From an uncultured Muribaculaceae bacterium (lineage in GTDB: Bacteria > Bacillota_I > Bacilli_A > RF39 > UBA660): a stretch of 64,000 nt of DNA. Every line of letters begins with the position of its first letter. Position 1 is the first letter of the stretch. Where the stretch lies: positions 5,493-69,492 of the forward strand of contig CAZVQX010000002.1 of NCBI GenBank assembly GCA_964629735.1, given 5' to 3'. Made by a program: the position numbers and the translations under genes. The notes under the pieces are model-generated. The model worked only from the letters and a program-made list of their open reading frames with translations. It had not been told where the DNA came from and ran no database searches. Positions 46,070 to 47,923 of the stretch are shown here, piece by piece.

Positions 46070-46101
46070 ATTAAAAACATAGAGTAAAGATTACTCTATG
46101 T
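46070..46101 (-). terminator. Rho-independent terminator after the large metallophosphoesterase gene, followed by the tig promoter (TTGTAA, 17 nt, TATACT)
   Basis: 11-bp stem ACATAGAGTAA/TTACTCTATGT that includes the stop codon. TTTTAAT follows on the minus strand. Confidence 0.5.
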
Positions 46102-47923
46102 CTTTTTTATATTTTAAAACTAATTTTTTTTCAGTTTCTAATGGTTTTATTTCTTCACCATATCCTAATATTGACATTAATTGATTTATTTCTTCTTCAT
46201 TATATTGACTTAAATCAATGTCTAAAACTTCTGAAATCTTTTTTAAAGTATTTTGATATTTTTTACCAACATAATTTATTTTACGTTTTAAGAGATTTAG
46301 TTTTTTCTTCAATTGTTCTCTTTGAACACTCTCATCACTTAAATCTAAGGCTTCAGTCATAGTATTCATTACATTTACATTTTCATTTCGGTCAATACTT
46401 TTTATTCTTTTTTTCCTATCTTCTTCAGTTAATGTTATATTATGTTTACCAATATATCCTTTTTCTTTATCAATTAAATATACACTGTGACCTTGTCTTT
46501 GACCTAAATATAAATTTGAATAATGCCAGTTTTCAATACCGGTTAATGATGCGGTTCTAATAACAGTTACTTTATCAAATTTGTTTTCAGAGTCTTGATG
46601 AATGTGACCAGCAAATACGTAAACACGATCAGCACGATTATATTCAGCTGGGAATTGATATTTAATTGATTCAGCTAAGTTTTTATCATTTAAATTTTTC
46701 CCTTCTGGACTTTTACCATGTGAAAAAACAATTAAATTTCTTCCGAATTCATAACAAGTTGTATATCTTAAATCTTTATAAGAAAATTGAACATCTACTT
46801 TTTCATCTTTTGTCATGTTATATATATCATATATATTCGTAAATAAACTGAAACTTGATTTTTCATCATGATTGCCCGGGTTACCTTTAATAACTACTTT
46901 TTCAAATTGCATTTTTAAAGTTTCTATCATTTGTAAGTATCCTATTTTCCCCCATAAATAAACTTCTTTAAAACGGGTGTCATTATGTTGTTGGGTTCCA
47001 GCGGTAGTTTTATCATCTACGGTATCACTATTAAAATAATCATTACCAACTCCTAAAATTAAAGATGTTGCTTTATGTTTTTTCTGATATTCAACAATCT
47101 CCATTACGGTCTGTTTTAATCGCCACATTGCTTGCTTTGTTGAAAAATCTTCAAAATCTACAACTGATCCTAATTTACCTATATGGAGTTCGAGACCTGG
47201 ACATACCATAACCAAATTATCATTATAATTTGGTTGTTTCTTTTTAGTTTTTGCGTGCTTATTTTCAAAAAAATCAAATGGCGTTATTTTCCTAGTTGAT
47301 AAATATTCATCTAACCAAGCATCACATTCTTCTTTGGTATAAAAAAGAATAGGATTTTTTCTCTTAGTAATTGATACACTAAATTTTTCATTTAATACCA
47401 TTTCAACAGTTTTTTCACCATGTTCATTTTCAACTTTTACTGGCGTTGTCCAAGCACCACTTATTATTTTTTGAACTTCAAAACGTCCTGGATTAAAACC
47501 TAAATAAGTTAATAAAAATAAATCATCACTTATTTTATTAATTATTTTTTGGCGAATAATTTCCTTTGAATCGGTCTCTATATCAATATCAAAAATTGGT
47601 TTATAATCTTCTTTAGGAATTGATAAACTTCTAATAATACTATCAGTATTTAATTTATCATTCATTTTTTCAACCGGTTGCCCTTGTTTGTTTTCTGGTT
47701 TTGTATATTGTTCAGTTTTTTCGCAATAATCAAACAATAATTGTGGATTAACCGAACTCATTAAAATTTTATTAGCTTGTGTACTTAGGGCATTTGGCGA
47801 TATTTCATTTTGTTCAATATCAAAATAAATTTTTGCGCCTTCTTTCCAAGTTTTAATAAGTTTTTGACTCTTTAGTAATTTAATGTAATAAATTAGTGTT
47901 AAATTATAATCAACCTTCATCAT
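46091..47923 (-). CDS. Large calcineurin-like metallophosphoesterase. It has an N-terminal domain of about 260 aa of unknown function and a C-terminal coiled-coil tail.
   Basis: Phosphoesterase motifs LELHIG, LGVGNDYFN, KGNPGNHDE, FSHG, FAGHIHQ. C-terminal heptad-rich region (EQLKKKLNLLKRKINYVGKKYQN...). Start set at MMKVDY (47923), with a GGGAGAGG SD immediately upstream. Confidence 0.55.
   Translation of the reverse strand: MMKVDYNLTLIYYIKLLKSQKLIKTWKEGAKIYFDIEQNEISPNALSTQANKILMSSVNPQLLFDYCEKTEQYTKPENKQGQPVEKMNDKLNTDSIIRSLSIPKEDYKPIFDIDIETDSKEIIRQKIINKISDDLFLLTYLGFNPGRFEVQKIISGAWTTPVKVENEHGEKTVEMVLNEKFSVSITKRKNPILFYTKEECDAWLDEYLSTRKITPFDFFENKHAKTKKKQPNYNDNLVMVCPGLELHIGKLGSVVDFEDFSTKQAMWRLKQTVMEIVEYQKKHKATSLILGVGNDYFNSDTVDDKTTAGTQQHNDTRFKEVYLWGKIGYLQMIETLKMQFEKVVIKGNPGNHDEKSSFSLFTNIYDIYNMTKDEKVDVQFSYKDLRYTTCYEFGRNLIVFSHGKSPEGKNLNDKNLAESIKYQFPAEYNRADRVYVFAGHIHQDSENKFDKVTVIRTASLTGIENWHYSNLYLGQRQGHSVYLIDKEKGYIGKHNITLTEEDRKKRIKSIDRNENVNVMNTMTEALDLSDESVQREQLKKKLNLLKRKINYVGKKYQNTLKKISEVLDIDLSQYNEEEINQLMSILGYGEEIKPLETEKKLVLKYKKDIE

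Follow-up and report, generated by a model that had tools for sequence, protein, structure and literature searches.

Nucleases of the Mre11/SbcD type consist of a calcineurin-like phosphoesterase core followed by an α/β capping domain, and they have an SMC-like ATPase of the Rad50/SbcC type as a partner, which usually shares their operon. Archaeal PolD DP1 is a 3'-5' proofreading exonuclease. Here we describe a gene, called X below, that lies in a 64,000-nucleotide stretch of DNA from an uncultured bacterium (GenBank assembly GCA_964629735.1, contig CAZVQX010000002.1, positions 5,493 to 69,492; the whole stretch is referred to as the window) and encodes a phosphoesterase with a core of this fold class. 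Our comparisons place X in a large family, carried mostly by phages, of which it represents a rare, long and chromosomal branch. Among phage proteins with this fold class, we found just one that has been studied experimentally. It is the recombination directionality factor gp47 of mycobacteriophage Bxb1, a stand-alone Mre11/DP1-like phosphoesterase that phage DNA replication requires and that shows a weak 3' exonuclease activity in vitro (PMC11795197). It has 255 amino acids (aa) and consists of the core only; hhalign gave a probability of 0.1% against the family of X, and gp47 is a fold-level analogue, not a family member. The phage origin of the family, a recurrent partner gene of the DHH type and a leader with an attenuator ahead of X are findings beyond the first-pass annotation of the window, which had been made from the sequence alone.

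46091 to 47923, minus strand: coding sequence of X, stop codon included; 610 aa counted from 47923, 609 aa from 47920
46430 to 47227, minus strand: binuclear metallophosphoesterase core, residues 233-498, with all metal ligands present and a family-specific conserved loop
46073 to 46105, minus strand: 3' intrinsic terminator of X, overlapping the stop codon (-16 kcal/mol, z -5.1; inverted repeat I8) and followed by the tig promoter

The open reading frame (ORF) was found as annotated earlier, but its start is more likely to be the ATG one codon downstream, at 47920, than that at 47923, because the N-termini of the orthologues begin at the equivalent residue. The maximal ORF has 642 aa (46091..48019, minus strand), and a 100% identical database protein has 609 aa and starts at 47920. 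The terminator and the Shine-Dalgarno (SD) sequence that had been ascribed to the gene were both recovered, the former as the hairpin at the stop codon and the latter readable as GGGAGAGG. By these comparisons X is a real and conserved gene under constraint: its intact 610-aa ORF is found in a genome of 26% GC, and 49 full-length relatives or clusters share 36-100% identity with it over the whole length. The base composition of X is the same as that of its flanks.

The SbcD/Mre11-like order of motifs proposed in the first-pass annotation proved to be complete. E245-x-H247, G293-N-D295, G350-N-H-D-E354, H402-G and G439-H-I-H442 are invariant in 32 full-length family members. These motifs could have failed on closer alignment; they held, with H247, D295, N351, H352, H402 and H442 100% conserved among 102 members of the superfamily and H440 conserved in 97%. 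Since position 245 is split between E (54 members) and D (48 members), E-x-H at motif I is a normal variant of the family and no sign of inactivation. The loop between motifs II and III (T306-x2-G309-T310-x-Q312-x2-D315-x-R317) is nearly as conserved as the ligands in the same alignment. Motif II of X reads D-Y-F-N and resembles the D-L-F-H of Mre11; N298 is replaced by H in 11 of the 102 relatives. At E≤0.01, Pfam Metallophos is matched by 38 of these relatives and Metallophos_2 by 26, and a search of NCBIfam with the X protein returned nothing.

An AlphaFold2 (AF2) model of X had a mean predicted local distance difference test score (pLDDT) of 83, and of about 90 in the core. When the model was compared with the PDB by Foldseek, 43 chains were matched at E≤0.001, essentially all of them metallophosphoesterases at a probability of 1.0, and the ranking was led by PolD DP1 (5ihe, E 3e-6), followed by Mre11 (MjMre11, E 5.6e-6) and SbcD (E. 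coli, E 5.8e-5). A polyubiquitin entry that came up in sequence searches of the PDB was rejected as an artefact of summed sub-zero repeats.

Although Mre11 and SbcD share the core and its motif order with X and are among the best structural matches, X differs from them in several ways. In the AF2 model only helices follow the core and the α/β capping domain is missing, an extra head and a β-hairpin domain precede the core, and no Mre11/SbcD chain in the PDB was matched at the sequence level. As had been stated in the first-pass annotation, there is no partner ATPase: nothing like SbcC or Rad50 adjoins X in any locus or is found among the large ORFs of the 64-kb window. DP1 is the top fold match and several phage relatives are annotated as DP1-like; however, the template modelling score (TM-score) with DP1 is only about 0.34, the N-terminal 232 residues of X match no structure with an oligonucleotide/oligosaccharide-binding (OB) fold, the host is bacterial, and no DP2-like gene was seen in any X locus. 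On testing, X had no partner ATPase, no capping domain and no OB fold, and it is therefore not an orthologue of Mre11/SbcD or of DP1.

The relatives of X are found mostly in phages. Among PHROG profiles, X matched phrog_704 ('DNA repair exonuclease', E 9e-30), with residues 222-498 aligned on profile positions 118-386 of 390, and phrog_284 ('exonuclease', E 2e-14). By tblastn, relatives were found in 161 phage records, belonging to unrelated siphophages of Streptococcus, Bacillus, E. coli (Rogue1-like), Flavobacterium, Rhodobacter and others, and Foldseek against predicted viral structures gave matches down to E 2.6e-22, several of which bear the DP1-like name 'DNA polymerase II small subunit'. 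An exhaustive profile search of 1.84 billion representatives collected 3,836 cluster representatives at E≤1e-3; nearly all of these have 400-470 aa and match positions ~130-505, and the ~600-aa form is seen in only about 15-20 clusters. In IMG/VR only three contigs carried relatives, with 28% identity and the tail absent. In phage genomes the gene occurs on its own where the replication or early module ends, often just ahead of HNH and terminase genes, and an SbcC-like ATPase was never beside it in the phage neighbourhoods inspected. A literature search found no paper on the PHROG 704/284 family, and no member has been characterised.

Compared with named members of this family (Bacillus phage vB_BhaS-171 gp01, Enterobacteria phage Rogue1 gp57 and Streptococcus phage CSJC CDS0056), X has the head, the middle domain and the core in common, together with the same invariant ligands, E or D at motif I and the lack of an ATPase partner. 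The phage proteins, however, have 370-470 aa and end a few residues past the core, whereas X adds a helical tail of about 110 aa. Furthermore, X sits on the chromosome away from any phage genes, has a DHH gene as a partner in many lineages, and is headed by a putative attenuator that is absent from the phage copies.

47699 to 47923, minus strand: helical head, residues 1-75 (AF2 helices 8-19, 26-37, 43-52 and 60-74, pLDDT 86-92)
47228 to 47641, minus strand: α/β middle domain, residues 95-232, a long β-hairpin (strands 148-165 and 171-187) with flanking helices
46094 to 46429, minus strand: helical C-terminal tail, residues 499-610 (AF2 helices 518-526, 530-567, 576-585 and 588-609, pLDDT 85-94)

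The N-terminal ~260 aa, which the first-pass annotation had taken as one domain of unknown function, resolved in the AF2 model into three parts, namely the helical head, a disordered linker (75-89) and the α/β middle domain. A separate model of residues 1-232 had no significant fold match in the PDB (best E 0.012), and its best matches there, uL22-type ribosomal proteins, share only the long β-hairpin. The link of this region to the family came through hhalign of the head, which aligned with the heads of phage-type relatives at a probability of 92% (E 7e-7). One phage head matches Myb_DNA-bind_5 (Myb/SANT, E 3e-4), and helix-turn-helix (HTH) domains of Pfam occur at the head position in about 15 of the 102 relatives; no HTH match came from a Pfam search with the N-terminal heads of ten family members. 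By this transitive route the head is probably a Myb/HTH-like DNA-binding domain. The middle domain is shared by the phage relatives; phage and superfamily matches begin at residues ~80-140, and a profile search of the PDB gave a marginal match to the C-terminal domain of IF3 (E 0.01).

The tail is 111-123 aa long in about 15 cellular clusters, whereas elsewhere in the family the median is 6.5 aa, and by this distribution it is confined to the cellular subfamily. These ~110 C-terminal residues are poorly conserved in sequence. The first-pass annotation had described them as a heptad-rich coiled coil; the helical character was borne out at high confidence in the model, but a coiled coil is no more than a possibility. 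Three proteins of 623-645 aa (P0080, P0081 and P0107) are matched by the family profile only up to ~475 and yet extend ~120 residues beyond the core, which suggests a second, divergent kind of C-terminal tail.

X is rare. Among 185,579 GTDB species representatives, 14 loci carry it, all in metagenome-assembled genomes of uncultured Bacilli/'Mollicutes', in agreement with the earlier claim that Bacillus has no counterpart; its retention is thus limited to a few uncultured Bacilli from guts and digesters. Its distant relatives (36-58% identity) lie in at least eight other chromosomal contexts, none of them phage-like; around the cellular copies the genes are of the housekeeping type, with no phage genes among them. 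All close relatives (71-79% identity) have the order greA-X-tig, and X diverges in step with its neighbours in this clade (X 70-72%, Tig 67-70%, PriA 65-69%, Fmt 74-78%, GreA 76-81%). The flanking genes of the window are 80, 67, 65 and 74% identical to their orthologues in one related locus, L002 (L-numbers denote loci from related genomes), where they carry the Pfam domains GreA, trigger factor, PriA and Fmt.

To compare the junction with genomes that lack X, related genomes were located via Tig. In L055 the order U32-U32-greA / tig-priA-fmt is kept and the junction is empty, its 86 nucleotides (nt) consisting of the greA terminator and the conserved tig promoter, the sequence of which is shared with the window. 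In L057 an unrelated 240-aa gene with no Pfam family (5220-5942) takes the place of X, and in L056 the upstream block is altogether different. A tree built from Tig, PriA and Fmt unites the genomes with X in one clade, outside which the genomes without X fall. Sister genomes without X include GCA_964397485.1. The tree and the empty L055 site therefore mean either a single gain of X at this junction or its loss from the sister lineage, after which the gene was passed on vertically under strong constraint. The first-pass annotation had read X as an insertion between greA and tig; this stands insofar as the junction is empty in L055 and occupied by another gene in L057, but the insertion is judged to be old and not recent, because X is syntenic within the clade and diverges like Tig, PriA and Fmt. 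X is thus stable within the clade and accessory in the wider group, and a view of X as a core housekeeping gene was dropped on account of the X-less genomes at the junction. The flanking order alaS...greA and tig-priA-fmt, described earlier as widely conserved, turned out to be a junction of two blocks in this lineage and is not known as a conserved arrangement across Bacillus. No meaningful direct or inverted repeats flank the cassette, and no integrase, transposase or phage genes are near X. The greA|tig junction is variable in another respect as well: in L011 an extra 192-aa ORF with a weak IseA-like match (7970-8548) lies between X and tig.

48036 to 48064, minus strand: promoter-like site, with -35 TTGCCA (48064-48059), a 17-nt spacer with a TG extension and -10 TATAAT (48041-48036)
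47958 to 48011, minus strand: candidate upstream ORF (uORF) of the leader, MENTNMYKIKKEEFARF*, 17 codons; an in-frame ATG at 48029 would give 23
47939 to 47984, minus strand: intrinsic terminator of the leader (putative attenuator), with 19-nt arms 47984-47966 and 47958-47940, a 7-nt loop and a T-run; inverted repeat I5
47925 to 47935, minus strand: Shine-Dalgarno region, GAAGGGAGAGG, with GGAGG-type equivalents in all orthologues

In every cellular locus X is preceded by the same layout, in which promoter-like -35 and -10 elements are followed by a short leader, an intrinsic terminator (stem and T-run) and, within 10-30 nt, the SD of X. The layout is kept where the upstream gene is divergent (L005, L006, L020, L058, L061) and where the terminator of greA itself comes first (L002, L011, L013). 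In the window the promoter-like site begins 3 nt past the greA stop codon and agrees with the consensus at 11 of 12 positions. Such a site alone is not above chance in this AT-rich region (29 found, 28.2 expected); it is nevertheless credible as the promoter of X, because all loci have a site of this kind in the equivalent position ahead of the leader, even when the upstream gene is divergent. The stop codon TAG of the tentative window uORF (47960-47958) sits in the loop of the leader terminator, which ends about 4 nt ahead of the SD of X, and the whole leader folds at -28.1 kcal/mol (z -3.4).

In a scripted search, a terminator ending ≤40 nt from the start codon was found in 19 of 20 X loci, and in the 20th by eye, compared with 27 of 212 other genes in the same DNA (13%), many of which are controlled by T-boxes or riboswitches and several of which are classic targets of attenuation (an aminoacyl-tRNA synthetase, metK and a T-box-led operon). 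A uORF with an SD and an ATG was found by strict rules in 13 of 17 leaders of the long form; 1,000 dinucleotide shuffles gave 1.5 ± 1.2, and never more than 6. These uORFs have 4-27 codons and are not conserved, and 11 of the 13 stop inside the terminator hairpin or at its first bases. In L058 the leader is duplicated, with two tandem units of SD+ATG uORF, hairpin and T-run (intergenic 2447-2796, X on the minus strand). A leader of this kind is absent from the phage copies, and the divergent DHH genes have plain promoters with no leader terminator. No Rfam 15 family reached its gathering score in the leader, E-value mode gave only generic hairpin matches far under the threshold, and neither a LexA-type box nor a conserved complementary segment was seen in the leader by eye. 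At the sequence level, the comparisons thus show a leader terminator before X, a putative attenuator, that is conserved in architecture and absent from Rfam.

The simplest mechanism that fits this architecture would be attenuation by ribosome occlusion, in which a ribosome that translates the uORF follows RNA polymerase so closely that the 5' arm of the hairpin is covered and the terminator is read through. The pyrBI leader of E. coli is a leader-peptide attenuator of the occlusion type, and ribosome-dependent attenuators are also known from resistance genes of Firmicutes; regulation by ribosome occlusion is regarded as rare in Firmicutes because RNA polymerase outruns the ribosomes. The leaders of X share with these attenuators a promoter and an intrinsic terminator ahead of the gene, and in most of them a candidate short leader ORF runs into the terminator; a separate antiterminator would not be needed. 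They are unlike them in that the leader peptides (4-27 codons) are not conserved, the gene that would be regulated is a phosphoesterase and not a biosynthetic or resistance gene, and one subfamily has no uORF. In L024 (1-1062) and L032, X directly follows the end of a 23S-5S rRNA operon and is itself followed by a tyrosyl-tRNA-synthetase-like gene, and it keeps its own promoter-like site and leader terminator there despite the rRNA operon upstream.

Clustering of the neighbours revealed a protein of about 330 aa that adjoins X in L005, L021, L006 and L020. It has DHH motifs (DxD, 'HFDHH') and a DHHA1-type 'GGG..AAG' C-terminus, gives weak Pfam DHH matches, and matches phrog_4771 ('DHH phosphoesterase', E 6e-17). 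Its identity with genes that large Firmicute phages carry under the name 'NrnB oligoribonuclease' reaches 35%, and its relatives are named 'oligoribonuclease NrnB/cAMP/cGMP phosphodiesterase' by the Joint Genome Institute (JGI). The DHH family is as rare as X (72 clusters). Four more loci (L058-L061) were picked for having DHH and X contigs of equal size, and all four then showed adjacency, so that X and DHH are direct neighbours in eight lineages and in two orientations (L005, L021, L059, L060; L006, L020, L058, L061). X runs into DHH with a 4-nt overlap in L059 and a 9-nt gap in L060, and the two genes are divergent in L058 and L061. Linkage of X and DHH is missing in the clade of the window; the L011 genome has both on a single contig, separated by about 29 genes as counted by the tags PHI05_00445 and PHI05_00590. 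In two phages inspected, the DHH gene was beside an RtcB or NUDIX gene and never beside a metallophosphoesterase. We infer that the adjacency reflects a real functional link, which would most simply be that of successive steps in nucleic-acid breakdown. BacA, of the undecaprenyl-diphosphatase family, adjoins the DHH gene in L058 and L061.

The explanation that we favour, with the chances about evenly balanced, is that X encodes a phage-derived, nuclease-like phosphoesterase that was captured long ago, works with the DHH enzyme and stands behind a leader attenuator. The product would be a catalytically intact Mn/Mg-type binuclear metallophosphoesterase, nuclease-like in the manner of Mre11, SbcD and DP1, and probably an exo- or endonuclease of nucleic acid, most likely DNA. 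It would cut the polymer to short pieces or trim its ends, and the NrnB-like DHH/DHHA1 oligonucleotidase would finish these pieces to mononucleotides. As a chromosomal offshoot of the phage family, the gene would have been captured long ago in a few uncultured low-GC Bacilli, and in the clade of the window it would have landed at the greA|tig junction and been inherited vertically since. The enzyme would be made only under particular conditions, for example when transcription is slowed by nucleotide scarcity. A tentative and rather doubtful extension is that X and the NrnB-like DHH enzyme form an undescribed, phage-domesticated two-enzyme module for nucleic-acid degradation, serving nucleotide salvage under shortage or acting as an infection-triggered suicide or defence nuclease, with the first enzyme gated by a new class of ribosome-occlusion attenuator.

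Several observations weigh against the favoured explanation. The phage label 'DNA repair exonuclease' is itself an inference. The best Pfam match of X, Metallophos_2 at 18.4 bits, is under the 27-bit cut-off, and sequence searches of the PDB with the single protein, the family profile and the superfamily profile gave no usable solved relative. The Foldseek TM-scores are modest (0.34-0.54, with DP1 at the lower end and Mre11 and SbcD at 0.40-0.46). The small-molecule phosphodiesterases GpdQ, YfcE and Rv0805, and likewise Vps29, scored only about tenfold weaker than the nucleases, and for this reason the nuclease assignment is the best reading but not a decisive one. The head of X has no direct Pfam match, and its HTH assignment is transitive. 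As for the leader, the SD of the window uORF is weak and fails the strict test, no alternative antiterminator structure appeared in the minimum free energy or centroid fold of the window leader, and the leader terminator could be simply leaky and constitutive. The rumen-type subfamily keeps the terminator but has no ATG uORF, and ribosome occlusion therefore cannot be a universal mechanism. Finally, the DHH gene is absent from the 64-kb window.

Some of these observations would suit a phosphodiesterase of small molecules or very short oligonucleotides (cyclic di-nucleotides, 2',3'-cyclic phosphates, pApA/nanoRNA), which together with DHH would clear a nucleotide signal or nanoRNA in two steps. 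This fits the JGI naming of the DHH partner in the NrnB/cAMP-cGMP phosphodiesterase COG, its resemblance to phage 'NrnB' genes, one of which adjoins an RtcB RNA ligase, the near equality of GpdQ, Rv0805 and YfcE with the nucleases in the fold search, and the occurrence nearby, in L058 and L059, of Ham1-like and NUDIX genes for nucleotide cleaning. We nevertheless regard it as unlikely, as the best structural matches are nucleases, the family has a head of the DNA-binding type, the phage relatives lie in replication and packaging modules, and X is far larger and more elaborate than the known phosphodiesterases of this kind and fold. An anti-phage or anti-plasmid defence nuclease, acting alone or with DHH and switched off by the attenuator until infection perturbs the coupling of transcription and translation, would account for the patchy occurrence of X in the wider clade, its presence at different chromosomal sites as a self-contained promoter-to-terminator cassette, its phage origin, a gating as tight as a toxic nuclease would need, and the different accessory genes found at the greA|tig junction in different genomes. 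However, PADLOC returned nothing credible for the defence-associated reading raised in the first-pass annotation (only two chance-level matches, E 0.06-0.08), the ~15 neighbourhoods are all housekeeping and none resembles a defence island, no marks of mobile elements were seen, and the stability of X within the clade, at a housekeeping rate, is unlike the fast turnover typical of defence genes, all of which makes a defence role improbable.

A role in replication or repair, in which X would be a 3'-5' exonuclease serving a polymerase by DP1-like proofreading or acting on DNA ends like Mre11 without Rad50, and would be unrelated to DHH, has a similarly slim chance. DP1 is the top structural match, phage relatives in replication modules are annotated as 'DNA polymerase II small subunit', X has priA (window), rnhB (rumen loci) and DEAD helicases (L059, L060) among its neighbours, and gp47 of Bxb1, which shares the fold class, is required for the phage to replicate its DNA and has a weak 3' exonuclease activity (PMC11795197). 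Yet gp47 is unrelated at the profile level, X has neither an OB fold nor a DP2-like partner, its neighbours vary by locus, and the recurrent adjacency of DHH would be left without explanation. The remaining idea, that X is a decaying prophage remnant or a mis-called ORF without function, draws on the mostly phage-borne nature of the family and is effectively refuted by the intact ORF in a low-GC genome, the invariant catalytic residues, the full-length identity across the 49 clusters, the divergence equal to that of Tig, PriA and Fmt, and the lack of other phage genes nearby.

The stable cellular branch to which X belongs, with its recurrent partner and its conserved leader, offers concrete handles on the function of a whole phage family that has thousands of members, is labelled 'DNA repair exonuclease' and is uncharacterised. 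The leader itself is a candidate for a new cis-regulatory element, in which a uORF runs into a terminator and the architecture, not the sequence, is conserved in about ten unrelated genomic contexts; if ribosome occlusion is true, the coupling of transcription and translation would be used for regulation in a Firmicute lineage. The organisms are uncultured and no long-standing open question is touched, and the value of the locus is that of a well-defined lead, mainly through the attenuator and the pairing of two enzymes.

Further genes were noted around X and in the window. In L006 (9389-10357) and L020 (8634-9605), a stand-alone 322-aa protein directly downstream of X consists nearly entirely of PF18723, the '5-hmdU DNA kinase helical domain' (E 1e-109), and matches phrog_2396 (E 3e-59); PF18723 is otherwise associated with phage DNA hypermodification. 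A VCA0040-like membrane protein (undecaprenyl phosphate translocase-like, PF04018) lies a few genes from X in four lineages:

L006 10467-11303: PF04018 protein near X
L019 8054-8848: PF04018 protein near X
L020 10790-11635: PF04018 protein near X
L061 2889-3722: PF04018 protein near X

In L039-L045, a T-box-like sequence (AGGGTGGAACCGTCC) is found in a terminator-type hairpin ~150-200 nt downstream of X (e.g., L040 ~6640-6816), ahead of a 264-aa gene that belongs to no Pfam family and of a GlyRS-like aminoacyl-tRNA synthetase of class II. In the window, a 189-aa ORF that overlaps the start of alaS (56085-56654, minus strand) matches the phage-type deoxynucleotide monophosphate kinase PF21448 (E 1e-15), a domain that in L002 is recorded on a gene call including alaS; this ORF is a further phage-like gene of nucleotide metabolism inside a housekeeping block. 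Lastly, two small ORFs of 100 and 214 aa between fmt and ruvA (40482-41432, minus strand) belong to no Pfam family, and ORFs comparable in size and placement are also present in related genomes (L002, L055-L057), whether or not these carry X.

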